Shown one piece after another: positions 184 to 21,584 of a stretch of 64,000 bases of DNA. Within the stretch, counting starts at the first letter, position 1; every line of letters starts with the position of its first letter. Position numbers and translations under genes: made by a program. Under the pieces are notes generated by a model. The model worked only from the letters and a program-made list of their open reading frames with translations, searched no databases and had not been told where the DNA came from. The stretch spans positions 397-64,396 of IMG/VR virus record IMGVR_UViG_3300042556_001330, one strand, 5' to 3'. This DNA comes from a virus. Its lineage: Duplodnaviria; Caudoviricetes.

Positions 184-965
184 TGATGGATGTAAATAAA
201 ATATTATCCGACAATGTTTTTGTATTTGAACAATATAAAAATAAAATATTATCAACACTTGCAAGTGATACAATAGATGACGGCACAATCCAATATAAAA
301 TGAATGAACATGGATATCGTTCCGATTCATTTAAAAATAAAACAAAATTTAATGTATTAACATTGGGTTGTTCTTGGACAATGGGTATTGGTGTCGATAA
401 TAATAAAATCTGGCCAAATCTAATTGGTAATAAATTTGGTAAAGTTTTTAACTATGGTATGTATGGAGTATCTACATCATTTATTGCAAAAACACTTTAT
501 AAAATAGTATCATCTGAATTTATACCGGATATGGTTTTAATAATGTGGCCTGGATTTAGTAGGAGAGATTATATAAGAGAAAATGGTTCATTTAAAAAAG
601 TCGGAGGATTTAGAATTGCAAACGATAGTGATTTGGTTTGGAAAAATGAAAATGAAGATTTATTATTTATAGAATTGAGAAATGATTATCAAGATTTGAT
701 GACATTTTGGGAAGCTTATACATTTGTCGAAACTATTGCAAAATTATATAACATTAAAATATTTCATACAATTGCAGGATATTATTATGATGTTTTCAAA
801 GAATTGGAAACCGAATTAAAATATACTATAAATTATGATAGATTTTTTGACCCAATTAATTGTTATAAAAATGATTTAAAGGGTAGGGATAATCACCATC
901 CCGGTGAAATCTGGCATGAGAATTTTTCAAAACAATTTTATACTTATATTAAAAATAAGTTATGA
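183..965 (+). CDS. SGNH/GDSL-like hydrolase or acyltransferase
   Basis: LGCSWTMG block I-like motif, NYGMYGVS block II, C-terminal DNHHPG..WH; lies in a sugar cluster. Confidence 0.65.
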   Translation: MMDVNKILSDNVFVFEQYKNKILSTLASDTIDDGTIQYKMNEHGYRSDSFKNKTKFNVLTLGCSWTMGIGVDNNKIWPNLIGNKFGKVFNYGMYGVSTSFIAKTLYKIVSSEFIPDMVLIMWPGFSRRDYIRENGSFKKVGGFRIANDSDLVWKNENEDLLFIELRNDYQDLMTFWEAYTFVETIAKLYNIKIFHTIAGYYYDVFKELETELKYTINYDRFFDPINCYKNDLKGRDNHHPGEIWHENFSKQFYTYIKNKL

Positions 966-1933
966 AAATTCTTATCACAGGTGGTGCAGGGTATTTGGGC
1001 TCAGTAATTACTGGAGTTATGTTAAATGCTGGATATAGTGTTACTGTTTTAGATAAATTACTATTTAATCAAACCTCTTTATTACAATATACATCTAATT
1101 CAAAATTTAAATTCATATATGGTGATGTTCGTAATTTAACCGAATTGGAAAGATTATGTAAAGAACATGATGTAATAATCCCATTGGCAGCTATTGTGGG
1201 ATTTCCTGCATGTGCAGCAGACCCCAAATTAGCAAAAGAAATTAATTTTGACCAAATTGTAAATATAGTTAGATTTACAAATGGTTTAGATAAAAAGATT
1301 CTATATCCAAACACAAATAGTGGTTATGGATTAGGAACGGGTGAATTGGAATGTAATGAAGAATCACCACTTACACCCATTTCAGTTTATGGACAAACTA
1401 AATGTGATGCTGAGAATTTTTTAAGAACTTCAACCGATGCAATTACTTTTAGATTAGCAACCGTATTTGGGGTTTCACCAAGAATGAGAACGGACTTGTT
1501 GGTAAATGATTTTGTTTACAAGGCAATCACAGACAAATATATTGTAGTATTTGAAAAATCCTTTAAAAGAAATTTTATTCATGTAGAAGATGTTGCATCT
1601 GCATTTTTATTTATGTTAAAAAATTATAAAACATACAATAGTGAAGTTTTTAATGTAGGATTGACTTCTGCAAATTTAAATAAACAAGAACTATTGGAAA
1701 AAATACAAAAATATGTAAAAGATTTTGCAGTAGTATATGATGATTATTATCAAGACCCAGATAAAAGAAATTACATAGTTTCAAATAAAAAAATAGAAGA
1801 TACTGGATGGAAACCTGAATGGGATTTGGATATGGGAATTAAACAATTAATTCAAGGATATCAAATGATTGTTCCAAAGATGGGTGCAGAATTCAGAAAT
1901 GGGTTTCCGTTAGGTTATGCAAATTTGGGATAA
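962..1933 (+). CDS. NAD-dependent epimerase/dehydratase (extended SDR)
   Basis: MKILITGGAGYLGS Rossmann motif, YGQTK (YxxxK), FRLATVFG, RNFIHVED. Confidence 0.92.
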   Translation: MKILITGGAGYLGSVITGVMLNAGYSVTVLDKLLFNQTSLLQYTSNSKFKFIYGDVRNLTELERLCKEHDVIIPLAAIVGFPACAADPKLAKEINFDQIVNIVRFTNGLDKKILYPNTNSGYGLGTGELECNEESPLTPISVYGQTKCDAENFLRTSTDAITFRLATVFGVSPRMRTDLLVNDFVYKAITDKYIVVFEKSFKRNFIHVEDVASAFLFMLKNYKTYNSEVFNVGLTSANLNKQELLEKIQKYVKDFAVVYDDYYQDPDKRNYIVSNKKIEDTGWKPEWDLDMGIKQLIQGYQMIVPKMGAEFRNGFPLGYANLG

Positions 1934-1934
1934 T

Positions 1935-2765
1935 ATGGATTTTAGTAAATATAAATTTTTTTATGTAAATGGTTGTTCACATAGTGAAGGTGGAGGCCTA
2001 GAACCAAGTGAAATTAGGGGAATTGGTGTAATTCCAATATATAAAGAATTATATGGTATAGATTGGAAATCTACAAGTGAAGTTAATTTTGGAAAACGAT
2101 TGGAAGAAATTATAGGAATAAAATGTATAAATGAAGCCAATTCAGGAGGAAGTACATCAAGAGTTGTAAGAATGACTTATGATTTTATTTACAATAATTG
2201 GGAAAATAAAGATAAATTTTTTCTAATTTTAGAAAAACCAGATTCATCTCGTTCAGATGTATTTAGTGCAAAACATAATGAATATTTTATTGTAAATTCC
2301 AAAGTTAATAATTCGATACACACATTTGCCGGTGCATCTAGAGATTATTTTAATTTATCATATAGAAAAGAGGATAGTTCATCAAAACATATATTTGAAA
2401 ATTGGTATGAAAACCATTATAGTTTTGAAAATAATATTAGTCAAGATGAAAAGGCATTTATTGGATTATATTCTTTTTGTAAATTAAATAATATTAAAAT
2501 TTTTATAATGAATGGAAATTCATTATATTTTTGGGAAGTATTTGATAAATCCGATATTATAAAATTTTCAAATAAAGAAAATGAATCCGATGACATATAC
2601 AGTTGGTGTCTTCGAAACAAAATGACAATACATGATGAAACGTTGGGTAAAATGACCGAATATGTAGATACTCATCCTGGATACTTTGGTCATATAGAAT
2701 ATGCTAAAAAACTGGCAAAATTTATAGGATGGAATCAAAAAAATAATAAAAATAAATTAATATGA
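1935..2765 (+). CDS. SGNH-like hydrolase or acyltransferase
   Basis: YVNGCSHSEG, NEANSGGS, DTHPGYFGH. ATG 1935, just after the previous stop, is preferred over 1917. Confidence 0.65.
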   Translation: MDFSKYKFFYVNGCSHSEGGGLEPSEIRGIGVIPIYKELYGIDWKSTSEVNFGKRLEEIIGIKCINEANSGGSTSRVVRMTYDFIYNNWENKDKFFLILEKPDSSRSDVFSAKHNEYFIVNSKVNNSIHTFAGASRDYFNLSYRKEDSSSKHIFENWYENHYSFENNISQDEKAFIGLYSFCKLNNIKIFIMNGNSLYFWEVFDKSDIIKFSNKENESDDIYSWCLRNKMTIHDETLGKMTEYVDTHPGYFGHIEYAKKLAKFIGWNQKNNKNKLI

Positions 2766-3310
2766 GTTATAAAGATAAAAAGTGGAATGATATAGAAGTT
2801 TCATTTTTAAAACCATTTGATAAAGATGTACCGGTATTTTCACCATCGGTATATAGAGAATATAGGGGAGAAATTTGGACAACATATCATCCGGAAGAAC
2901 ATCCTGTTCATAATTTTATGCACGGAGATTTGAAGGTACATGGTAGATTTTCAAAATCATACAAAGGTGTATTAAGAGGATTACATTGGGATAATAAGAC
3001 TTGGAAATTAGTTCAAGCATTGGTGGGTGATATATTTTTAGTAGTTTTGGATGTTAGAAAAGATTCACCAACATATGGTGATTGGAATTCATATTTACTT
3101 ACTGAAAAAACCAGAGACCAAGTATTAGTTCCACCGGGATTTGCAAACGGACATTATGCACTAACAGATTGTGTATTTCATTATAATTTATTTTATGAAG
3201 GTGATTTTGTTGAAGAAAATGCACAAGGTGTTGTAAAGTGGAATGACCCTGAATTTCAAATCGAATGGCCAACCGATTCACCAATATTACAAAAAAGAGA
3301 TAGATGTTAA
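2762..3310 (+). CDS. rmlC: dTDP-4-dehydrorhamnose 3,5-epimerase-like cupin
   Basis: S.KGVLRGLH, KLV..LVGDIFLVVLDVRKDSPTYG.W, VPPGFANGH, WNDPEFQIEWP. Confidence 0.88.
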   Translation: MSYKDKKWNDIEVSFLKPFDKDVPVFSPSVYREYRGEIWTTYHPEEHPVHNFMHGDLKVHGRFSKSYKGVLRGLHWDNKTWKLVQALVGDIFLVVLDVRKDSPTYGDWNSYLLTEKTRDQVLVPPGFANGHYALTDCVFHYNLFYEGDFVEENAQGVVKWNDPEFQIEWPTDSPILQKRDRC

Positions 3311-3933
3311 AAAATTTAGAACAATATCCAATAGTAAGAGATATCGATTGGACTGTAGAAAAACTTATTAAGTTTGAACAAGAAATTGTTGATATATGGG
3401 AAAGTGGAAAAATCAGAGGCCCGGTACATTTGTCAAATGGAAACGAAGAACAACTTATAGAGATATTCAAAAGAATTAAAACATCCGATTGGGTATTCAG
3501 TACATGGCGTTCTCATTACCATTGGGTTTTAAAAGGATTATCCGCAGATTATGCAACCGAATTAATTAAAGAAGGTAAATCAATCACAATGTGTGAACAC
3601 AACGAAAAATTCTACGCTTCTGCAATCGTAGGGGGTACTCTATCAATTGCTTTAGGAGTTGCAATGGGAATCAAACAGAGTGGTAGTGATGAAAAAGTAT
3701 TTGTATTCATTGGTGACATGTCATTCGAAAGTGGTATATTTTATGAAGTACATAAATATGCTAGAAATTTTGACTTACCAATTGTATTTGTTGTAGAAGA
3801 TAATGGGGTATCGACATATACTCCAACCGAATCAACTTGGAATAAAAAAAGAGACATCCCATCGGATGTTATTCATTACACTTATAAATCAAAATATCCA
3901 CACTACGGAAGTGGTAAATGGATAGCCTTTTAA
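3304..3933 (+). CDS. TPP-dependent dehydrogenase E1-alpha-like subunit (short)
   Basis: GPVHLSNGNE, STWRSHYH, TPP-binding GDMSFESG...VVEDN. Confidence 0.85.
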   Translation: MLKNLEQYPIVRDIDWTVEKLIKFEQEIVDIWESGKIRGPVHLSNGNEEQLIEIFKRIKTSDWVFSTWRSHYHWVLKGLSADYATELIKEGKSITMCEHNEKFYASAIVGGTLSIALGVAMGIKQSGSDEKVFVFIGDMSFESGIFYEVHKYARNFDLPIVFVVEDNGVSTYTPTESTWNKKRDIPSDVIHYTYKSKYPHYGSGKWIAF

Positions 3934-3935
3934 TT

Positions 3936-4478
3936 ATGAATAAACCAGAATATACACCATATAAAGATGCATTGAGTATTGCAATGAAAAACATATCCGA
4001 TTTGGATAATTCTATTTTCATTGGCCAACAAATAGTTTATGCAGGAAATCCAATGAGTACAACATTGGGTGAAGTACCAAAAGAAAAAATGATTGAATTG
4101 CCTGTTATGGAAGAAACACAAATGGGAATGAGTTTGGGACTATCAATGACTGATAAATTGGTAGTAACATTTTATCCGCGTTGGGATTTTATAATATGTG
4201 CAACAAACCAATTAATAAACCATATTGATAAATACGAATCCATGACAGGATTTAAACCACATATTATAATTAGATTGGGAAAGGGTTCGGATAAACCATT
4301 AGACCCAGGACATCAACATAAGGGTAATTATTTTGAAGAATTTAAATCTATGTGTAAAAATATAGAATTATTGGATTTAAAAACACCAACCGATATAGAA
4401 TTATCATACAAATATGCTACACAAAACAAAGGAGTATATATATTAGTAGAATATCCAGAATTATATTATAAAAATTAA
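3936..4478 (+). CDS. E1-beta/transketolase pyrimidine-binding subunit lacking the C-terminal domain
   Basis: ELPVMEETQMGMSLGLS, NQLINH, PGHQH; directly follows the alpha-like gene. Start is 3936 or 3918. Confidence 0.82.
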   Translation: MNKPEYTPYKDALSIAMKNISDLDNSIFIGQQIVYAGNPMSTTLGEVPKEKMIELPVMEETQMGMSLGLSMTDKLVVTFYPRWDFIICATNQLINHIDKYESMTGFKPHIIIRLGKGSDKPLDPGHQHKGNYFEEFKSMCKNIELLDLKTPTDIELSYKYATQNKGVYILVEYPELYYKN

Positions 4479-4617: not shown

Positions 4618-4626
4618 ATATTTATA
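4618..4626 (+). promoter_or_regulatory. Putative late promoter motif ATATTTATA
   Basis: Recurrent intergenic motif; 3 nt before ATG 4630. Confidence 0.6.
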
Positions 4627-4629
4627 CAC

Positions 4630-7600
4630 ATGAATTTGAACGAAGTAAATAAACCAATCATAGAAGGTGAGGTTGTGGTGTATGCTGGTAGATTCCAACC
4701 ATTCCACAGAGGTCATTACGATGCATACCAAAGATTGGTAAGTGAATTTGGTTCTGCAAATGTTTACATTGCAACATCAAATGATACATCATCTGATAAA
4801 TCTCCATTTTCTTTTAACGAGAAAAAGGAAATTGCAACTAAAATGTTTGGTGTTCCATCTACTAAATTTGTAAGAGTAAATAACCCATATAGACCTGTTG
4901 AAATATTAAAAAAATATGATGGTCAAACTATCGCATATATTGCAGCGGTAGGTGAAAAAGACGCAACGAGATTACAGGGTAAATATTTTAAACCATATAG
5001 AGGTAAAGCTGGGTATGGTTATGATGAAATAGGTTATACATATCCAATACCTGCCGAAAAGGACCCGATTAGTGGAACCGATGTTCGTAATGGATTGGGT
5101 AGTGGTGATAAAGAAAAAGCTAAAAAGTTTTTTCTTAAAGCATACCCAAAATTTGATAAAGATATTTTCAAAATGATAACAACTAAGTTAAGTGAAGGAT
5201 TTCCAGGAGGAATAGGTGTTGGATTAAATTTACCTGGAGGATATATAAATGGTGCACCAACGGGTTCTGTGACTGAATTGGTTAGTGGTTATGAATTAAA
5301 CCCATATGACCCAATTGCAGAATTGTTAAACCAAGTAGTTACCGAAGAATTATTTCAAGAATTTACCAAACAATATTTTACAGAAGAATCTGATGCAAAA
5401 AAGATGGGGTTAACCCATTTAGGTGGGGGATATTATGGTAAAGATAAAGGACAACCCGCAACACATAAATCAGATGGTGATAATATAAGAGCTTTAACAC
5501 CCGCGGAAGCAGCAGCCGAAAAACAAAAACATATGGCAAAAGGCCCTTCGGATGCACCCGCAAACGAACCAAAACCATCTCAACCTGGACAACCTGTTAA
5601 TAAGGATACAACTGTACAGGGTAAAACTGATACTGAAAAAGAAAAAGGTTCAGAAAATAAACCTGGAGAAGAAAAGCAAGAGGCACCACCAGAACAAAAA
5701 TTAAGTGGAGATGAATTAAAATCATCGGCAGAAATGTCTCCGGAAGATAAAAAAGTTGCACAAACAAAAGAGGCATTAGATAAAGCCAGAAAAGAAATGT
5801 CTGCAGAAGATAATGGTATTATAGATTCACATAATAATCCTCAATCACCGGAAAGAAAGGGAATGGTTGACAATATGGTTGATGGTGTTAAAAAATTCGG
5901 TAAAGGTTTGAAAAATTGGTTTATTCACAAAAAAGAAATGGTTGGTGGAACAATGGATGGTATTGTATCAATAGCAACTACCGGTAAGATTGGTAGTGTG
6001 AAAGATAAAGAAGGAAAACGTAGACATTGGAGTGAATTCACAGAAGTTGGTCGTGGTGGTAAGCACCAAATGGAATATGTTGAAACGGATGAATTGGATT
6101 CACATGGTAAACCAACGGGTAAAAAAGTAGGGGAACATAGACCGAAAGTATCACAATACGCATTGGATGAAGAAAAACAATTGTTTGAAGCTTCTTGGAA
6201 AGAAAGCAAAAAACAAAAGAAAGATATGACTCATTTTGCAAAGGATATGGGACTTATATTAGGTTCTATGGCATTGGGTGGTGCAGGTGTTGGAGCAATC
6301 AAAGCAGCTGTTGCTGGTGCAGGTGCATCCGGTGTAGGAACGGCCGCAGCAGCCGGTGGGGCCGGTGCATTTACACATGGAGCGGCCGGTTTTGGTGTCC
6401 ACTTAGCCAAAGATATTGCAAAACATGCATCTCTTGAAGCAATGGGATTGGGTGCATCACAAGCTGCCGGAGTTGGTGCAGGTTTATCTACTGCAACTTT
6501 AGGTTTATTAGAAATTCTTAAAGAAGAAAATGAACCAAATAATAATAGTAAATTTACTTCTAAATTTATTGGAAAAGTAATCGAAAAGATGAAAACCTAT
6601 AAATTATCAGATGAACAACTTCTTAAATCAATAGAAAGTTATAAAAAAAATAAACCAAAAAATGACGCGGCAGATTTATTAAAAGAAGATATATCTGAAT
6701 CAAAACAAAATTCTATAAATCATTTTGTAGAATACGCAACTAAAAAATTAAAATTAAAAGAACAACCAAAAATAACTTTGGTATCAGGTAGAGAATATTC
6801 GGAAGCAAAAACCAGTTTAGGTGGATATAATCCAATATCTAAAGAAATATTCGTTGCAATTGAAGGTAGATTAACGGCAGATATTTTAAGAACTCTTGCA
6901 CACGAAATGGTTCATAGAAAACAAGATGAATTGGGATTGGTAAAAGATGAAGTTAAAGATGGTGCAACAGGTTCTCCAATAGAAAACCAAGCACACGCTG
7001 TAGCTGGAATCTTAATGAGAAATTATGGTAAAATAAATAAACAAATATATAACGAAAATGTTAATGTAGATGTTGATAAAGGTGATGAAGTTTTAATGGG
7101 TAAATTTAAGAACAAAAAAGTTACCGTTAAAGATATTGGAAAAGATTCTCATGGGATGCCAACAATCAATGGTAAACAGGCAACTACATTTAGAACAATA
7201 GATGAAATGGGTAATAAAGATGTTCATTTTATAAACATTATAAAGTTGTATAGAAATGCAACATTCAGAAAAAGAATAAATGCATATCTGTTTGGTAGAG
7301 CAAATATGCCATCAAATCCAAATATGGTTGCAAGAGCACTTCGTAATATGGGTTATGATGAAATAACTCAAATGGAAAAAGAGTTAAACATTCAACCTGA
7401 CTTAAATGAAGTTAGTAACGTTCAAATATCTAATACAGCAGATATTCCAGATGGTTCATTTATTCAAAAAGGTAAAAAAAGAAAACTAAACACAGATAAG
7501 AGTGAAGATTGGTATAAAAATGGTGGATATACACAAACCGAATTTCCAAAAGCAGACGCAATATTTGGTGATGAGGATGCAGAAGAAAGAATTGTTACAT

Positions 7601-8862
7601 ATAGTATAGAAAATCTTCCAGATGTGAAGTATGTAAAAACCGATTTCATTAAAGAAGGTTTATTAATGGAAGGTGGTGCATATGGACATATGTCACATCC
7701 ATTTGATGATATGGATTTAACTTTTGGTGATTTAAAAAATATAATTACAAAAGCACTTAATGGTGATTTGGGTATAGTTAGAGAAAAAACAGACGGACAA
7801 GCTTTGGCAATTAGTTGGAAAAATGGTAGATTAATTGCAGCAAGAAACAAAGGACATTTACAAAACGCAGGTGCAAATGCATTGGGTATAGAAGGTGTTG
7901 CATCTAAATTTGCCGGAAGAGGTGGATTAACCGATGCATACAATTACGCAATGAAAGATTTATCCGCAGCTATATCATCCTTATCAGAAAAACAAAGAGA
8001 AAAGATTTTTGGTGAAGGTAAAAACTTTATGAATATTGAAGTAATTTGGCCAACATCGGTAAATGTAATTCCTTACGGACAAGCTTTATTGGTTTTCCAT
8101 AATTGTATTCAGTATAACGAAAGTGGTGTTGCAGTAGGACAAGTAGATGGTGCAGAAAATATATTAGCCGGAATGATTAAACAAGTAAATGCAGACGTTC
8201 AATCAAAGTATACAATACAAGGCCCACCGATTACATCAATTCCAAAATCAGAAGATTTAAGTTCTAAACAAAGTAAATATCTTTCTAAGTTAAATAAATT
8301 ACAAAATGAATTTGGATTGAAAGATTCTGATAATGTTGCAGACTATCATCAAAGCTGGTGGGATTGGTGGATTACATCAAATAGTCCAGTAAAAGTTGAC
8401 AAACTTACAAAAGAGGCATTAATTAGGAGATGGGCATTTGGAGATAAATCATTTAGATTAAATACAATCTCAAACCCAGAGTTACAAAAGTGGACAATTA
8501 CACAAGATAAAGTAAATGTTATAAAACAACAAAAAGATAATATTAAACCATTCGAAGAATTATTTTTAGGAGTAGGTGCAGATGTTTTAGAATTTGTCAG
8601 TTCGGTATTAACAGTTCATCCTGACAAAGCGATTAGGTCAATGAAAGAAAAACTAAAGTCTGTTGCATCACAAGTTAGAAGTGGTGGAGACCCATCAAAA
8701 GTTCAAAAATTAAAACAAGAATTAAGTAGATTAAATGCTTTGGGTGGTATTGATAAAATAGTTGCAACCGAAGGATTGGTGTTCTTTTATAATGGAAAAA
8801 CGTATAAACTTACGGGTTCTTTTGCACCCCTAAACCAAATATTGGGTATTTTTTACGAATAA
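4630..8862 (+). CDS. 1410-aa multi-domain protein: N-terminal HxGH nucleotidyltransferase, Gly/Ala hydrophobic segment, HExxH metallopeptidase-like domain, C-terminal ligase-fold-like domain
   Basis: YAGRFQPFHRGH...ISGTDVR; LAHEMVH (6901-6915); EKTDG (7783), EGLVF (8770), YKLTG. Confidence 0.75.
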   Translation: MNLNEVNKPIIEGEVVVYAGRFQPFHRGHYDAYQRLVSEFGSANVYIATSNDTSSDKSPFSFNEKKEIATKMFGVPSTKFVRVNNPYRPVEILKKYDGQTIAYIAAVGEKDATRLQGKYFKPYRGKAGYGYDEIGYTYPIPAEKDPISGTDVRNGLGSGDKEKAKKFFLKAYPKFDKDIFKMITTKLSEGFPGGIGVGLNLPGGYINGAPTGSVTELVSGYELNPYDPIAELLNQVVTEELFQEFTKQYFTEESDAKKMGLTHLGGGYYGKDKGQPATHKSDGDNIRALTPAEAAAEKQKHMAKGPSDAPANEPKPSQPGQPVNKDTTVQGKTDTEKEKGSENKPGEEKQEAPPEQKLSGDELKSSAEMSPEDKKVAQTKEALDKARKEMSAEDNGIIDSHNNPQSPERKGMVDNMVDGVKKFGKGLKNWFIHKKEMVGGTMDGIVSIATTGKIGSVKDKEGKRRHWSEFTEVGRGGKHQMEYVETDELDSHGKPTGKKVGEHRPKVSQYALDEEKQLFEASWKESKKQKKDMTHFAKDMGLILGSMALGGAGVGAIKAAVAGAGASGVGTAAAAGGAGAFTHGAAGFGVHLAKDIAKHASLEAMGLGASQAAGVGAGLSTATLGLLEILKEENEPNNNSKFTSKFIGKVIEKMKTYKLSDEQLLKSIESYKKNKPKNDAADLLKEDISESKQNSINHFVEYATKKLKLKEQPKITLVSGREYSEAKTSLGGYNPISKEIFVAIEGRLTADILRTLAHEMVHRKQDELGLVKDEVKDGATGSPIENQAHAVAGILMRNYGKINKQIYNENVNVDVDKGDEVLMGKFKNKKVTVKDIGKDSHGMPTINGKQATTFRTIDEMGNKDVHFINIIKLYRNATFRKRINAYLFGRANMPSNPNMVARALRNMGYDEITQMEKELNIQPDLNEVSNVQISNTADIPDGSFIQKGKKRKLNTDKSEDWYKNGGYTQTEFPKADAIFGDEDAEERIVTYSIENLPDVKYVKTDFIKEGLLMEGGAYGHMSHPFDDMDLTFGDLKNIITKALNGDLGIVREKTDGQALAISWKNGRLIAARNKGHLQNAGANALGIEGVASKFAGRGGLTDAYNYAMKDLSAAISSLSEKQREKIFGEGKNFMNIEVIWPTSVNVIPYGQALLVFHNCIQYNESGVAVGQVDGAENILAGMIKQVNADVQSKYTIQGPPITSIPKSEDLSSKQSKYLSKLNKLQNEFGLKDSDNVADYHQSWWDWWITSNSPVKVDKLTKEALIRRWAFGDKSFRLNTISNPELQKWTITQDKVNVIKQQKDNIKPFEELFLGVGADVLEFVSSVLTVHPDKAIRSMKEKLKSVASQVRSGGDPSKVQKLKQELSRLNALGGIDKIVATEGLVFFYNGKTYKLTGSFAPLNQILGIFYE

Positions 8863-10253: not shown

Positions 10254-10891
10254 TGAAAAAAATATTTGATATAAGACATATAGTAATTGCAATACTTTTA
10301 GTATTAGTAGTTGTAGAATTTATTAATCCAAAAGGTATTATGCCAAATAGAACTATTGTCATGCATGATACGATTGGAATAGAAGTACCAGTTCATGATA
10401 CTATCCCAGAAGAAGTTGAAGTTGAAGTTGAAGTGCCAGTTATGGTTGAAAAACCAGTTCCATATGCGGTACACGATACTATTCAAACAATTGTAGATAC
10501 TAACCTTATTGTAAATCAATATTTGAATAGTAAGAACATATTTACAAACACATATAAGTTTGATAAAAAACAAGGTTCAATTACAATAACCGATACTATA
10601 AGTAATAATAAAATAATCGGTAGAAAATATACAACTAAAATAACACCAATAATAGATACTATTAGAATACCAGAACCTTTCAAAAGAAAAGTTTTTGGTG
10701 GAGTTGAAGCATCATTTAATAAACCTGATGTTGTAAGTTCATTAGGAGTTGGATTTTTAATTAATAGTAAATCTAATAAAATATATCAATTAGGTTTGGG
10801 AGTTACTAATCAAACAACCGATGGAACGAATGGTTCATTTACTCCATATATCAAAGGTGGTGTTTATTGGAAAATTAAATTAAAAAAATAA
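10253..10891 (+). CDS. Membrane-anchored exported protein with beta-rich C-terminus
   Basis: N-terminal TM, repeated HDTI/DTI, amphipathic C-terminal strands ending GGVYWKIKLKK. Confidence 0.6.
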   Translation: MKKIFDIRHIVIAILLVLVVVEFINPKGIMPNRTIVMHDTIGIEVPVHDTIPEEVEVEVEVPVMVEKPVPYAVHDTIQTIVDTNLIVNQYLNSKNIFTNTYKFDKKQGSITITDTISNNKIIGRKYTTKITPIIDTIRIPEPFKRKVFGGVEASFNKPDVVSSLGVGFLINSKSNKIYQLGLGVTNQTTDGTNGSFTPYIKGGVYWKIKLKK

Positions 10892-12505: not shown

Positions 12506-12514
12506 ATATTTATA
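12506..12514 (+). promoter_or_regulatory. Putative late promoter motif ATATTTATA
   Basis: Recurrent intergenic motif. Confidence 0.55.
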
Positions 12515-12531: not shown

Positions 12532-13479
12532 ATGAACGAAGATTTAAATAAATGGTTTAAAGAAAAATGGGTGAACATCGGAAAAAAAGTCGATGGAAAA
12601 CACCCGCCATGTGGAACTTCGGGAGAAAAGAGTGGGTATGCAAAATGTGTTCCTGCTGCAAAAGCTGCTGGAATGAGTAAAAAAGAAAAAGAAAGTGCAA
12701 CTCGTAGAAAAAGAGCTGCACAAAATGATGCAGGAAGAGGTGGAAAGGATAGTAGTGGACAAGGTAAAAAACCAATATATGTTTCAACAAAACCAAAAAA
12801 TGAAACTATGAACATAGAAGAAAAAATAAATTTATTTTTAGAAAAGAATTGCCCAACTGACCCTGGTAAATGGTCAGCATCTAAATCAGCAGCAAAATCT
12901 AAATTTGATGTTTATCCATCGGCATATGCAAATGGATGGGCTGCAAAAAACTACAAAGAAAAAGGTGGTGGTTGGAAAACTTGTAATGAAGGTGAAACCA
13001 ATGCACTTTGTGAAGATTGTTGGGATGGATATAAAGCAGTTGGTGGCAAAATGAAAAATGGTAAGATGGTGCCAAATTGTGTTCCTGTAAATGAAGATAT
13101 AGATAGTGATGATGATGTAAATTATGGTTTAGTTGAACCAGAAGAATATGATGTTGAAGATGAGGATATGGAAGACTTCATTTCATTTATGAGAAATTAC
13201 GCAAAAGACTTAAATGAAGCAGGTTGTCCATGTGTATTTGAAGCAGAATATCAAGGTAGAGAAGTTAAATTGGGAAAACCAATGGCCGGTGATGTTAAGA
13301 AATTTAAAGTATATGTAAAAAATCCAGCTGGTAATGTTGTTAAAGTAAACTTCGGTCAAAAGGGAGTAAAAATTAAAAAGAACAATCCTGATAGAAGAAG
13401 AAGTTTTAGAGCGAGACACAATTGTGATAATCCAGGACCAAGACATAAGGCAAGATATTGGAGTTGTAGAAAGTGGTAA
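12532..13479 (+). CDS. Multi-module basic/Cys-rich protein, probably head-associated
   Basis: Modules WFKEKWV..CG..KCVP, YPSAYANGW, CWDGYK..VPNCVP and VKVNFG..FRARHNC..YWSC separated by x-x-E linkers; lies between terminase and portal. Confidence 0.65.
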   Translation: MNEDLNKWFKEKWVNIGKKVDGKHPPCGTSGEKSGYAKCVPAAKAAGMSKKEKESATRRKRAAQNDAGRGGKDSSGQGKKPIYVSTKPKNETMNIEEKINLFLEKNCPTDPGKWSASKSAAKSKFDVYPSAYANGWAAKNYKEKGGGWKTCNEGETNALCEDCWDGYKAVGGKMKNGKMVPNCVPVNEDIDSDDDVNYGLVEPEEYDVEDEDMEDFISFMRNYAKDLNEAGCPCVFEAEYQGREVKLGKPMAGDVKKFKVYVKNPAGNVVKVNFGQKGVKIKKNNPDRRRSFRARHNCDNPGPRHKARYWSCRKW

Positions 13480-15303: not shown

Positions 15304-15324
15304 TCTGACAAATTAGACAAATTG

Positions 15325-16197
15325 ATGAAAAAAATAAAACATTCGAAGTTCAAAAATACTGGATTTATATTTGAATTATTAGTAAGACAAATTACGTCTG
15401 AAATCATGTCTGCTAACAAATCAATTGCAGAAAAAATTTTAAAAGAACATTTTAACTCTAAAAAAGAGTTATCTAAAGAATTGAAGTTATATCAATATTT
15501 GATTAACGAAAAATATAATTCGGAATCAAAGGCTGAACAATTCATCAATACAATATTGGAAGCTCGTAAAAAAATTGACGAGAAAAAACTTACAAAAGAA
15601 AAGTATAACCTTATTAAAGAAATTAAGGAAACTTATAATTTAGATGAGTTTATTAAATCTCCAATATCAAACTACAAAACTCTTGCATCTATCTATAAGA
15701 TATTTGAAACGGTTACATCTGACGAATCATTTGACCCAACCGATGTAGTTAGTTCTAGATTTACTATTGCAGAAAATATTATCAATTCATCTATTCAAAA
15801 TAAAGAAGCAAAAGTAAAAGATGCCGTTTTAGAAGAATATAGAAAACAAGATGATGATTTAAGAGCAGTATCATACAAATTATTAGTAGAATCTTTTAAT
15901 AGCAAATACAAAAACTTAACGGAAGACCAAAAAAGCCTATTGAGAGAATATATTAACAACATCAATAACACTGGTAAATTGAATCAATATGTTAATGAAG
16001 AAGTAACTAAATTAGTAGATTCATTAAAAGAAGTTGGTTCTAAAATTGGTGATAAAGTAACTAAGATTAAATTGGCAGAAACGATTTCAAATATTAAGAA
16101 AATTAAGTCTGTAAAAAAGATTAAAGAACAACACCTATCAGCAATGATGATGACATATGAATTGTTAAAAGAATTAAAAGAATCAATAAAAAAATAA
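15325..16197 (+). CDS. Helical head-module protein (prohead core candidate)
   Basis: KHSKFKNTGFIFELLVRQ; Lys/Glu-rich helical; directly after the portal. Confidence 0.6.
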   Translation: MKKIKHSKFKNTGFIFELLVRQITSEIMSANKSIAEKILKEHFNSKKELSKELKLYQYLINEKYNSESKAEQFINTILEARKKIDEKKLTKEKYNLIKEIKETYNLDEFIKSPISNYKTLASIYKIFETVTSDESFDPTDVVSSRFTIAENIINSSIQNKEAKVKDAVLEEYRKQDDDLRAVSYKLLVESFNSKYKNLTEDQKSLLREYINNINNTGKLNQYVNEEVTKLVDSLKEVGSKIGDKVTKIKLAETISNIKKIKSVKKIKEQHLSAMMMTYELLKELKESIKK

Positions 16198-17711: not shown

Positions 17712-18118
17712 ATGAGAATCTTATATTGGGTGTAATGACCACTATTGGTTCTATACTCATTGGTAAGATTATCTTTTATTATATTGTAGATTTGGCACAA
17801 AAAGGAATGAAATATTTCCAAGGAAAACCAAACTATAAAAAAGAGGTTAAAAGTATTTTAGATTCGATTGCAGATAATAAAAATGTAATTGAAGATATAT
17901 CTAAAATGATTGACCCGAAAAAAGGAATTGACAATAGTACCGCTGAGGATATTGTTAATATGGGATATATTAAGACACAGATAATTAAAATGGTGGATAG
18001 TACAAATGGTGAGTTGGATGAAACTGAATTGAAAAATCAATTAAAGACCATACTTATCAAATCTTGGACACCAATGAGTAGTGTGGCAATTGAAAAAGTT
18101 AAAAAGGATTTAAAATAA
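17702..18118 (+). CDS. Membrane-segment protein, probably expressed as a -1 frameshift extension of the 17403 ORF
   Basis: The -1 frame is open through A_AAA_AAG and reads KVDENLILGVMTTIGSILIG; there is no ATG before the hydrophobic segment. Confidence 0.55.
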   Translation, partial: KKVDENLILGVMTTIGSILIGKIIFYYIVDLAQKGMKYFQGKPNYKKEVKSILDSIADNKNVIEDISKMIDPKKGIDNSTAEDIVNMGYIKTQIIKMVDSTNGELDETELKNQLKTILIKSWTPMSSVAIEKVKKDLK

Positions 18119-18708
18119 TGAGTAAAGGACTATTAATAGAAACACACCTATTTGAGGCAAAAATGGTGAAAGAAGAAAACGGAACTTATTTAGTTAAGGG
18201 TATTCTTCAAAGAGCAGGTGCACCAAATCAAAATCATAGAAGGTATCCTAAAGAAATCTTAGAAAGGGAGTGTAAAAAATACGAACAACTTATTAAAGAA
18301 AGAAGAGCATTGGGTGAATTAGACCACCCAGATTCTCCGGTTATCAACTTAAAAAATGTATCACATAACATTAGAGAAATTTGGTGGGATGGTGATGATG
18401 TTTGTGGTGTAGTAGAAATTCTTTCAACTCCTTCCGGAAATATTCTTAGAGAATTATTAAAGAATAATATTCGTTTAGGTATTAGTAGTAGAGGATTGGG
18501 TTCGGTAAAAGAACTTAGAGATGGTACTGTAATGGTTCAGGAAGACTTTGAATTGGTTGGATGGGACTTTGTATCAAATCCATCAACACATGGTGCATTT
18601 ATGGCTCCTATGAACGAAAGTAAACAATGGGCAAAAGTAGCAGAGGAATGTGGTAAGTGGTGTAAGTCACAAGATTTAATGAGAGAAATTATAATAGAAC
18701 TAAATTAA
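18118..18708 (+). CDS. Prohead core protease (T4 gp21-like)
   Basis: NQNHRRYP, ALGELDHP, VSH, TPSG, GISSRGLGS, DFVSNPS. Confidence 0.93.
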   Translation: MSKGLLIETHLFEAKMVKEENGTYLVKGILQRAGAPNQNHRRYPKEILERECKKYEQLIKERRALGELDHPDSPVINLKNVSHNIREIWWDGDDVCGVVEILSTPSGNILRELLKNNIRLGISSRGLGSVKELRDGTVMVQEDFELVGWDFVSNPSTHGAFMAPMNESKQWAKVAEECGKWCKSQDLMREIIIELN

Positions 18709-20363: not shown

Positions 20364-20798
20364 ATGTTAAAGTTAAGAGATTTATTAAAAGAAACCGAAG
20401 AGTTTGAGCAATTACCAACGGAATTGAAAAAACACTTTTTAGAAATTATTTCAACTTATAACCAACATAGAGAAGGTATGAGTAGAAAGTCCGATATTAT
20501 GCAAATTGCAGAAACATTGGGTGGTATTGCAGATGCTGCACAAGAATATACTTTGAGAGAAGGTGGTGATTGGTTTGATAGAGTTACTATTAAAAGAAAT
20601 ATGAATGAGTTAAAGAAATTACAAACTTCATTTGAAAAGGAAGCAGTTGAAGCGAAATCACAACAACAAAGATTAGAAGCTCTTTATGAAGATATGGGTC
20701 ATGTGTTAGGTAGATACTTTGAAATAGCAGATTTATCTGAAGAAGTGATGAAACAAAGATTAGGATTACAAGAATGTAAAACTTGCAATGGCAAATAA
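20364..20798 (+). CDS. Helical head-module protein
   Basis: MLKLRDLLKE leader; coiled coil; LYEDMGHVLGRYFEI. Confidence 0.65.
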   Translation: MLKLRDLLKETEEFEQLPTELKKHFLEIISTYNQHREGMSRKSDIMQIAETLGGIADAAQEYTLREGGDWFDRVTIKRNMNELKKLQTSFEKEAVEAKSQQQRLEALYEDMGHVLGRYFEIADLSEEVMKQRLGLQECKTCNGK

Positions 20799-21225
20799 AC
20801 AAAAATTAAACGAATTTTCTTTGGTAGCCATACTGGGTGGTATAGCATTGTTTGCTTTTTTCAGTATGTTATTTGGAAGACTTGCGGATAATGTTGACGC
20901 TTACTATAATGGTAGAAGTGTAGAAATACAAAGAGCTCTAAAAAAAATATTAAAATCATTATACAAAAATAATACATTTTTAGCAAGAATAGATGATGAC
21001 GCAGAAAGAATGGGAGTTGGTGGTGGATTAATATCTGCAATCATGGGATACCCTGAATTAAAATCGGAATTAAATTCTTACAAAAATGACAAAAATATTA
21101 ATTTTGAAGAACTTAAAAATGAATTAAGTAAAGTTTTAACAAAAGGAATATTTGAAGAAGCACAAGATAGAGGATTAATAGTTAATTTCGAAAAACAAAT
21201 CAAAAATACAAAATGGAGCAATTAG
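20788..21225 (+). CDS. Protein with TM segment immediately after an LNE site
   Basis: KLNE|FSLVAILGGIALFAFFSMLF; architecture resembles the 17702-18118 ORF. Confidence 0.6.
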   Translation: MANKQKLNEFSLVAILGGIALFAFFSMLFGRLADNVDAYYNGRSVEIQRALKKILKSLYKNNTFLARIDDDAERMGVGGGLISAIMGYPELKSELNSYKNDKNINFEELKNELSKVLTKGIFEEAQDRGLIVNFEKQIKNTKWSN

Positions 21226-21584
21226 CATCATTATTATTACATAGCAGAACACAGGCACATTCATTTCATTTAGGAGTTAAAGGTACAGGTGCACTATCTG
21301 CACATTTGGCATTAGGAAATTATTACGATTCTATCGGTGGTATCGTTGATGGATTAGTAGAAGCATATCAAGGACAATATGGTTTAATTAAATTACAACC
21401 TGTTAGTGGTTTAGATACAAACAATGATATCAAAAATATAATTGCATACTTTGATAAATTAGTTGCAGCAGTTGCAAAATTGAGACAAGACGAAAAATTA
21501 CAAATGAGTTGGTTACAAAACGACATAGATACTATTGTAACTTTATTATATTCTACAAAATACAAATTAGTTAATTTACAATAA
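21213..21584 (+). CDS. Ferritin/Dps-like four-helix protein
   Basis: AHSFH...AHLALGNYYD...DGLVEAYQG...LQNDID...TKYKL pattern. Confidence 0.7.
   Translation: MEQLASLLLHSRTQAHSFHLGVKGTGALSAHLALGNYYDSIGGIVDGLVEAYQGQYGLIKLQPVSGLDTNNDIKNIIAYFDKLVAAVAKLRQDEKLQMSWLQNDIDTIVTLLYSTKYKLVNLQ

Follow-up and report, generated by a model that had tools for sequence, protein, structure and literature searches.

What is the function of a long chain of enzyme-like modules that is encoded just ahead of the packaging and head genes of a phage? This question is raised by an uninterrupted open reading frame (ORF) of 1410 amino acids plus stop at 4630..8862 (+ strand) of the window, the whole 64,000-nucleotide stretch of DNA analysed here, which corresponds to positions 397 to 64,396 of the IMG/VR record IMGVR_UViG_3300042556_001330 (Duplodnaviria; Caudoviricetes). 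The window belongs to a viral contig of 64.4 kb, which is thought by estimate to cover ~32% of a genome; it has a GC content of ~32% and carries nearly all of its genes on one strand. Judged from these genes, the source, a phage from water, is an uncultured T4-like myovirus and the window is its late region. The balance of the evidence tips slightly towards packaging of the polyprotein (P0002) in the capsid and its processing by the prohead protease. Its domains are assigned with high confidence as an NMNAT-like nucleotidyltransferase, a zincin and a ligase-like domain, and the chances are about even that the last of these, the C-terminal domain (C-domain), joins RNA ends.

The ORF and every motif listed in the initial annotation were found where they had been placed, namely GRFQPFH (residue 20), LSE/GFPGG (residue 187; a slash marks a putative cleavage point), HEMVH (residue 758), IKE-GLLME/GGAYGH (residues 1007-1020), EKTDG (residue 1052), NIE (residue 1135), EGLVF (residue 1381) and YKL (residue 1392). 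Full-length homologues of 889-1682 amino acids with the same module order are present in related viral contigs, and 41 distinct ones, obtained from 80 related viral loci, were aligned. The chain begins with the leader MNLNEVNKPIIE (4630..4665, + strand, as are all the following segments), in which [LI]-x-E ends at residues 5 and 12 and which we infer to be a propeptide. It is followed by an NMNAT-like nucleotidyltransferase of the HIGH superfamily (4666..5187; residues 13-186) and by the LSE junction with a conserved GFPGG..GGYINGAP..IAE module (5188..5322; residues 187-231), the GGYING motif of which recurs across many homologues and in P0081. A Lys/Glu/Gly-rich low-complexity linker of variable occupancy (5377..6249; residues 250-540; K 15%, E 11%, G 10%; alignment occupancy 0.3-0.8) precedes a Gly/Ala-rich, moderately hydrophobic segment ending in LLE (6250..6519; residues 541-630). 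The latter had been taken for a membrane module, an interpretation that was rejected because its Kyte-Doolittle maximum over 19 residues, 1.54, is under the usual transmembrane level; the segment contains 36 small-xxx-small motifs. Next are a minimal zincin (HExxH) with an LKE-DISE..LKE leader (6679..7059; residues 684-810) and three small shuffled modules (7060..7647), which recur in varied combinations among the homologues: a GKFKNK module (residues 811-859), a helical module ending in LNE (residues 860-927) and a FPKAD module (residues 928-1006). No family match for the modules in 811-1006 was obtained in the Pfam and NCBIfam scans. The junction IKEGLLME (7648..7671; residues 1007-1014) stands directly before GGAYGH, the beginning of the C-terminal, RNA-ligase-like covalent nucleotidyltransferase domain (7672..8859; residues 1015-1410).

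The boundaries of these modules had been proposed to coincide with hydrophobic-x-E motifs of the type cut by the T4 prohead protease. An enrichment of [LI]-x-E in the single sequence was rejected, as its 16 copies compare with 13.2 +/- 3.2 in 2000 shuffles, 24% of which contained at least 16. Because the raw count was at chance, conservation across the homologues was examined for selection, with each site scored for L/I at P3 (FTEE and YNE carry F/Y there). At ten of the 16 sites, L/I and Glu are retained among the 41 homologues and the residue between them is variable. These are residues 3-5 (38/41; x = N, L, K, T or S), 187-189 (LSE, 36/41), 229-231 (IAE, 37/41), 626-628 (LLE, 26 of 27 occupied rows), 684-686 (29/41), 688-690 (37/41), 709-711 (38/41), 925-927 (LNE, 24 of 24 occupied rows), 1007-1009 (IKE, 39/41) and 1012-1014 (LME, 41/41). 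The sites at 10, 512, 518, 630, 857 and 1118 are not conserved in the window clade. Thus the proposed boundary motifs held in part: they are selectively conserved in linkers, but several of those originally listed are not, including IIE 10-12 (4/41), LKE 630-632 (4/41) and IDE 857-859 (20/41). The equivalent of IIE 10-12, KP-[IL][IL]-E, is common in a divergent marine clade. Module occupancy in the alignment jumps exactly at 684 and 1007, which indicates that a module travels with the motif ahead of it.

The control was a count of every conserved P3-x(variable)-P1 triplet in the linkers and in the three folded domains. With L/I at P3, Glu at P1 gave eight conserved triplets, eight in linkers and none in folded domains. 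The corresponding numbers for other P1 residues were three for Lys (none in linkers), three for Gly (two in linkers) and 0-2 for each of the remaining residues, with 0-2 linker sites each. The linkers contain 90 Lys and 67 Glu, yet Lys yielded no conserved linker triplet.

The same motif was found at the junction ahead of the C-domain in more distant proteins. Among the best 150 cluster representatives of the C-domain family, 139 had a recognisable junction, which reads [LI]-x-E directly before GG in 106, has another hydrophobic P3 residue in three and is replaced by a start at M/GG in two. In a separate marine clade, whose terminase is 55-60% identical and which supplied 33 distinct full-length proteins, the junction motif is present in 26 and an [LI]-x-E within the first 15 residues in 25. 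The initial annotation had suggested looking for homologues encoded as separate genes behind an x-x-E leader, and such genes exist: a junction can be recognised in 11 stand-alone C-domain representatives, and eight of these start with 10-35 amino acids of leader ending in [LI]-x-E directly before GG. The junction residues 1007-1014 were modelled as disordered, with a predicted local distance difference test (pLDDT) score below 50. The conservation pattern indicates that the junction [LI]-x-E, with its free middle residue, is under selection in disordered joints.

A protease of matching type is encoded in the same late module. The gp21-like gene that had been noticed at 18118 proved to be a T4 gp21-type S77 prohead protease gene (18118..18708, + strand; Pfam Peptidase_S77, PF03420, E 1.2e-31; phrog_207, E 2.9e-54). 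The N-terminus of its product is MSKGLLIE, and T4 gp21 itself has LIE near its N-terminus according to the available passages of PMC9026906. Leaders of the same kind begin the head-module proteins of the phage (MKHTELKE, MLKLRDLLKE, MANKQKLNE and MANSKLLKE), and the capsid protein contains ..LLDE/ATR at residue 61, ahead of its conserved mature part. The large terminase gene lies 0.5-3.9 kb downstream of the polyprotein gene in 105/105 related loci with at least 4 kb of downstream flank, and it is followed by the portal gene and then by the S77 protease gene wherever the fetched flank extends that far.

The C-domain forms a large family. One search returned more than 1500 matches, and clustering at 50% identity gave 1905 representatives; residues 1015-1410 matched no Pfam family (E up to 5) and no NCBIfam model, and no PDB chain was matched by phmmer or by a 34-sequence profile. 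In an alignment of 34 sequences with 39-64% identity (alignment K64 = K1053, E148 = E1137, E392 = E1381 and K404 = K1393 in P0002 numbering), the invariant columns are K-x-D-G, an Arg, the Glu of N-I-E-V and E-G, and the Lys 12 residues after E-G is near-invariant. Motif I is K1053-T-D1055-G1056 (7786..7797, + strand), in which K, D and G are invariant in the 34 sequences and K1053 is the predicted adenylylated lysine. The motif III candidate is N-I-E1137 (8032..8040, + strand), whose Glu is likewise invariant, and motifs IV-V are E1381-G-L-V-F ... K1393 (8770..8808, + strand), with E and G invariant and K in at least 90% of the sequences. Between motifs III and IV the model secondary structure shows a mostly helical insert (8224..8751, + strand; ~residues 1199-1374).

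The AlphaFold model of the C-domain (pLDDT 90.3; predicted template modelling score, pTM, 0.85) was compared with known structures. Foldseek placed ligases in all of the top ranks with weak scores, the best being T4 Rnl1 (E 1.8e-3), and in a structure search independent of Foldseek, ligases filled the first 12 places among 48,161 chains. About 185 of ~390 residues align to ligases, the aligned range being model residues 25-417, and the ~170-residue insert puts motifs IV-V at the extreme C-terminus. RNA ligases rank above DNA ligases, and an OB or DNA-clamping domain is absent. On these models, the C-domain is a member of the covalent nucleotidyltransferase superfamily with a ligase/capping fold, and a family of its own nearest to ATP-dependent RNA ligases. 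The ligase likeness that had been read from four motifs is thereby upheld, and those motifs are the invariant columns of the alignment. The nearest structures are Naegleria NgrRnl/Rnl5 (5COT and 6VT1), T. brucei REL1 (1XDN), T4 Rnl1 (2C5U and 5TT6), T4 Rnl2 (2HVQ) and the ligase domain of fungal Trl1 (6N0T). The window domain differs from them in having no sequence-level match to any ligase family, in the ~170-residue helical insert and in a conserved GGAYGH-x-x-HPFDD head ahead of it; compared with Rnl1-Rnl5, the model shows the helical insert in place of a terminal accessory domain.

Another hint to the active site comes from P0250 (1245 amino acids), which contains a mini-intein exactly between the Lys and Thr of K-T-D-G, with a Cys start, a His-Asn end and Thr at +1; P0117 is a gene call that begins inside such an intein. 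Inteins are typically located in active-site motifs, so an insertion directly after the motif I Lys fits a catalytic lysine. In the marine loci L165-L169, the C-domain matches span 2205 nt at most and 1919 nt at least, compared with ~1240 nt, which would fit the same intein insertion. By eye, P0250 also contains ParB-like, Ros/MucR and HNH-like stretches.

Proteins with the C-domain are 396-1930 amino acids long and nearly always end in it, and stand-alone forms exist. Among 52 scanned representatives, PF01467 was found in 28 (C-terminal to the ligase-like domain in three of these), DUF5661 in five and a Ros/MucR zinc finger in four. Other partners in the family are a PolyA_pol/CCA-adding head domain (P0173), a 2H phosphoesterase just under the cut-off (P0177), an HD domain (P0089) and cupins. 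The PolyA_pol/CCA head, 2H and HD partners suggest an RNA theme. In Microcystis phage Mel-JY01, on which no literature was found, a 639-amino-acid protein consists of a cytidylyltransferase (CT) and the C-domain only; it has an LLSE leader, LSE after the CT and IAE/GG, and it has no zincin.

The N-terminal domain matches Pfam PF01467 (CTP_transf_like) over residues 17-110 (E 4.7e-6; 27.3 bits against a gathering cut-off of 21), phrog_395 (E 2.1e-11) and PDB chains of NMNATs (E 0.003, residues 14-82). NMNATs are defined by the H-x-G-H and I-S-x-T-x-x-R motifs, and GRFQPFHRGH (20-29) and ISGTDVR (147-153) are legible in the translation. The NCBIfam NMNAT models gave 26.5-32.4 bits, over residues 14-82 only, below their curated cut-offs of 127-449 (32.4 against 449, 30 against 127 and 26.7 against 181.2 bits). 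Because the alignment is limited to residues 14-82 and the scores are far under the family cut-offs, the domain is called NMNAT-like and not NMNAT. The earlier proposal of a HIGH-type, NMNAT-like nucleotidyltransferase therefore stands, whereas membership of the NMNAT families proper fails. The domain resembles the NadM/NadR NMNATs in both motifs, and NMNAT chains and models are its best sequence matches; it differs from them and from phage NAD+ salvage systems in that the window protein lacks a Nudix or kinase partner. The PHROG scan of 52 window ORFs revealed no NadV gene, on a contig that represents ~32% of the genome.

The HExxH stretch had been described as metallopeptidase-like, and both model and structure matches support a zincin fold. 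Residues 684-810 were modelled with a pLDDT of 88.5 and matched SPRTN, Wss1, minigluzincins, IrrE, ArdC and the ERAP1 core, and also YbeY-type metal hydrolases. When 14 stand-alone relatives are aligned with the segment, H-E-x-x-H is invariant, as is an E-N further downstream. According to the model, the segment folds as a minimal zincin with HExxH and a downstream third ligand.

Evidence on virions was taken from passages and table text of PMC9146016 and PMC10665884, which concern cyanophages. In this material, a protein named 'cytidylyltransferase' is listed in CsCl-purified S-SZBM1 virions (S-SZBM1_140; 2 peptides, 13.5% coverage; PMC9146016) and in S-CREM2 virions (S-CREM2 ORF154; 3 peptides, 11.2%; PMC10665884). 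The cyanophage CTs are homologous to the N-domain of the window protein by BLASTP (E 2e-6 over 152 residues; E 2e-5 over 67). Five of six cyanophage CTs begin with a leader of 9-10 amino acids, such as MKKFSAFLTE/A or MRFRQFIIE/A, and the sixth has Phe at P3. The leader has hydrophobic residues at positions 4 and 7, L/I at 8 (7 in one) and Glu at 10 (9 in one). In the T4 IPIII targeting sequence, positions 4 and 7 decide targeting and positions 8 and 10 decide processing, and Asp is reported to prevent processing in T4 (PMC9026906, in the passages available); by its residues the cyanophage CT leader looks like a T4-type targeting sequence. In the passages available of PMC7678222 (Lake Baikal) and PMC12801897 (S-SCSM2R), only glycerol-3-phosphate cytidylyltransferase (TagD) is named, as a putative metabolic gene. 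The gene that follows the CT gene, S-SZBM1_139 (record 78988-80361), encodes a virion protein of 457 amino acids with a long Ala/Gly/Ser/Lys-rich tail; the S-SSM4 gene in the same position begins MNLKE, like the window protein. The middle modules of the window protein showed no similarity to the products of the neighbouring cyanophage genes S-SZBM1_136, 138, 139 and 142, S-SSM4_146 and S-RIM12_066, or to S-PM2d140 and S-CREM2 155-160; the CT alone was matched.

The gene adjoining the CT gene, S-SZBM1_141, matches DUF6267 (PF19782, E 3.7e-130), a family of ~397-amino-acid proteins of cyanomyoviruses on which no literature was found. Phage records with DUF6267 number 464 and those with CT 563, and the two are mostly neighbours. 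The family resembles the C-domain in its partner, a phage CT that is adjacent or, in S-PM2d138, fused, and in its layout: H-x-x-H-x-x-D near the N-terminus, K-x-D-G 33-44 residues on, E-G 316-328 residues further and a Lys 12 residues on. S-SZBM1_141 has K-W-D-G, E-G-F-V and the Lys in the same layout as the window C-domain. DUF6267 proteins differ in being stand-alone and leaderless, and in that the gene order is reversed, with DUF6267 first and the CT second. At the structure level, a BFVD search matched the S-PM2 fusion protein of 591 amino acids (E 7.2e-6), and in the nearest ESM Atlas cluster 24% of the members carry DUF6267. A sequence link was not significant (hhalign E 0.18 with the single sequence and 0.16 with a 16-sequence profile), and the DUF6267 hidden Markov model matched neither P0002, nor 34 relatives (E up to 0.01), nor 52 relatives (E up to 1e-4). 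The relation between DUF6267 and the C-domain therefore rests on layout, partner and structure-level hints.

In the mechanism proposed here, the modular chain would be expressed late and recruited into the prohead core, where the S77 prohead protease would cut after the Glu of the [LI]-x-E motifs to give separate modules. The released pieces would exit the capsid together with the DNA. The ligase-like piece, self-adenylylated on K1053, would then join or modify broken RNA ends, for example of tRNA cut by host defence nucleases, and the nucleotidyltransferase partner would act in the same pathway by nucleotide transfer, or would restore NAD+. The nucleotidyltransferase and the C-domain are fused or adjacent in many T4-like aquatic phages.

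Two known cargo systems are comparable with this scheme. As with T4 Alt and IPI-IPIII, the window phage has a T4-type S77 protease in the same late module, its protein has a short N-terminal leader and joints ending in [LI]-x-Glu, and the cargo consists of enzymes rather than structural parts. T4 propeptides are 7 to 65 residues long, and targeting sequences have been suggested to let T4-like phages load varied proteins, as stated in passages of PMC9026906. The window protein differs in that many modules form one 1410-amino-acid precursor with a site per joint, whereas T4 uses one leader per protein, and in that its targeting and cleavage are predictions. The polyvalent proteins, for which delivery during infection and proteolytic separation have been predicted (PMC5512222, in the parts available), likewise combine unrelated enzymatic domains in one chain among virion genes and include a small metallopeptidase (MPTase)-like zincin. 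The window protein similarly has three enzymatic folds and cassettes in a virion-gene context. Its domain set differs, as 'cytidylyltransferase' and 'NMNAT' do not occur in the available main text of PMC5512222, and no ART, MuF or portal fusion turned up in Pfam scans of the window protein. Its joints also carry the prohead-protease motif, and most of its relatives have no zincin.

The alternative that survives best is a cytoplasmic multi-domain enzyme of RNA repair or nucleotide metabolism that is made late and remains unpackaged and uncut, the motifs being part of the linker structure (helix caps, docking) and the position among head genes being historical; we regard this as unlikely. Single-chain enzymes of this kind have precedents, since Pnkp and Trl1 are well-known multi-domain RNA repair enzymes that work as one chain. 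Several observations weigh against packaging and processing, and some of them would suit an uncut enzyme directly. The raw motif count is at chance. In S-PM2d138, a DUF6267-like domain is followed by the CT in one fused chain, and the joint is a plain RPPSGEGAK, with no leader and no [LI]-x-E, which implies that the enzyme pair is able to work as one uncut chain. The cyanophage DUF6267 proteins are leaderless, and S-SZBM1_141 is not named among the virion proteins in the available main text and tables of PMC9146016. The leader of the window protein, with five residues to the first site and 12 to the second, is unlike the cyanophage CT leader. At the junction before GG, Cys, Met or Ala replaces Glu in 28 of the 139 distant representatives, mostly as LL[LQT][C/M/A]/GG, and seven of the 33 marine proteins have LLLM there. 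The homologues are related to each other, so the conservation counts are not independent events; the fold scores of the C-domain are moderate; and the polyprotein and its clade are known here from sequence and models alone. Most of the proteins with a non-Glu junction have an [LI]-x-E ~20 residues upstream. A different protease co-varying with the non-Glu junctions was considered and dropped, as the carriers are close relatives of Glu-junction phages and have the same S77 protease.

An uncut enzyme nevertheless accounts poorly for the pattern of the joints. The conserved motif is specific for Glu and for linkers and leaves its middle residue free, the leaders of stand-alone relatives end in it, and the joint was modelled as disordered rather than helical. 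The homologous CT is listed in virions of two cyanophages in the material cited above, and the polyprotein gene is in strict synteny with packaging and head genes.

It is improbable that the chain is a polyvalent protein, as described by Iyer et al. 2017, that is cut by its own zincin (MPTase-type autoprocessing), whether packaged or not. The HExxH module does have a zincin fold, and its matches include SPRTN, Wss1, IrrE and ArdC. The passages available of PMC5512222 propose that functional units are released from polyvalent proteins by MPTase domains and that ~35% of these proteins are phage-encoded and likely packaged. However, HExxH is present in only three of the 33 marine-clade proteins, and Mel-JY01 and the stand-alone C-domain proteins have no zincin, yet [LI]-x-E is kept. 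The prohead protease is favoured as the cutting enzyme, since the zincin is missing from most relatives and the motif is nevertheless kept in them. In addition, the motif follows the T4-type protease rule that is also visible in the head proteins of the same phage, and YbeY-type nucleases match the zincin fold too. A role of the ligase-like domain in morphogenesis or DNA packaging, either by sealing DNA nicks or by non-catalytic assembly as in tail-fibre attachment by T4 RNA ligase 1, is very improbable, since RNA ligases outscore DNA ligases with OB and DNA-clamping domains absent, the domains fused to it in other proteins belong to RNA-end enzymes (CCA-adding head, 2H, HD), and the cyanophage CT/DUF6267 pair is not beside the terminase gene (S-SZBM1_140/141 at ~81 kb, terminase at ~119 kb).

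No publication describing the window protein was found in a literature search covering T4-like virion proteomes, RNA ligases, polyproteins and prohead proteases. A conserved upstream element, TATTTATA, lies at 4619..4626 (+ strand), 3 nt before the ATG of the polyprotein gene. This 8-mer occurs in the window 16 times on the + strand and five times on the - strand; 12 of the + strand copies sit 1-50 nt upstream of structural-gene starts, and the 8-mer is usually preceded by (a/g)a or ta. Besides 4619-4626, + strand copies are at 12507, 15296, 26355, 33730, 34227, 46607, 51312, 54131, 55934, 58201, 62692 and 62711. Of 34 distinct regions upstream of homologues, 33 contain the element, and 31 have it 3 nt before the ATG, although the flanks differ. 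The T4 late-promoter consensus TATAAATA was rejected, since the coding strand has only five copies of it and the enrichment concerns its complement, TATTTATA. So close to the ATG (3 nt), TATTTATA is not readable as a T4-type -10 element of the polyprotein gene. Since it is common to structural genes and the polyprotein gene, co-regulation is suggested; the element could act in translation or as a late promoter of a type other than that of T4.

The remainder of the late region was assigned by scanning the window ORFs (52 against PHROG) and with Pfam. The genes for the large terminase, portal, major capsid protein, tail sheath and tail tube start at 10891, 13535, 23515, 55977 and 58234, respectively. 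Between terminase and portal, the ORF at 12532-13479 (+ strand; 315 amino acids) has four [LI]-x-E against 1.1 expected, and pieces of it match seven PHROGs without an assigned function; several marine relatives have the homologue upstream of the polyprotein gene instead. Between portal and protease, the ORF at 15322-16197 (+ strand; 291 amino acids) has 20 [LI]-x-E against 6.3 expected by composition and no family match, and it looks like a prohead core or scaffold protein built for shredding by the protease. The ORFs at 20364-20798 and 20788-21225 (+ strand) start with MLKLRDLLKE and MANKQKLNE, respectively, and resemble the leader MIRLKKLLNEVLLKE of the stand-alone C-domain protein P0078; such leaders could mark further capsid-targeted small proteins. 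The ORF at 21213-21584 (+ strand; 123 amino acids) matches phrog_858, 'starvation-inducible transcriptional regulator' (E 4.6e-17), an odd passenger in a head module. Upstream of the polyprotein gene, two adjacent ORFs in 3304-4478 (+ strand; 209 and 186 amino acids) match two halves of phrog_34187, as well as the thiamine pyrophosphate (TPP)-binding and pyrimidine-binding halves of transketolase or E1 dehydrogenase-type enzymes. They are preceded by nucleotide-sugar epimerase genes (962-3310), and the pair may be a split TPP enzyme within a sugar-modification cluster.

In summary, the C-domain family is large, previously unclassified and without a Pfam model, and if capsid packaging and processing should fail as an explanation, a new ligase-like family with a conserved nucleotidyltransferase partner would still be left. 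If the reading is true, this abundant unannotated family (1905 representatives, with a DUF6267 look-alike in 464 phage records) would be a new branch of RNA ligases, and the cyanophage CT, usually listed as a possible cell-wall or metabolic gene, would have a partner in function, and its presence in virions would be explained. The T4 capsid-targeting principle, so far a matter of single small internal proteins, would be widened to whole chains of shuffled enzyme cassettes, with consequences for how phages load counter-defence in advance and for the delivery of foreign proteins by means of such joints. More tentatively, cassettes bounded by [LI]-x-Glu might be a general plug-in system of T4-like aquatic phages, in which any enzyme module behind such a joint would enter the prohead as part of a single precursor, be freed by the head protease and be injected. 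The constant passenger would be an RNA-ligase family comprising the C-domain and its distant look-alike DUF6267, which would act with the CT as a virion-delivered pair for RNA-end repair or modification ahead of any phage gene expression.

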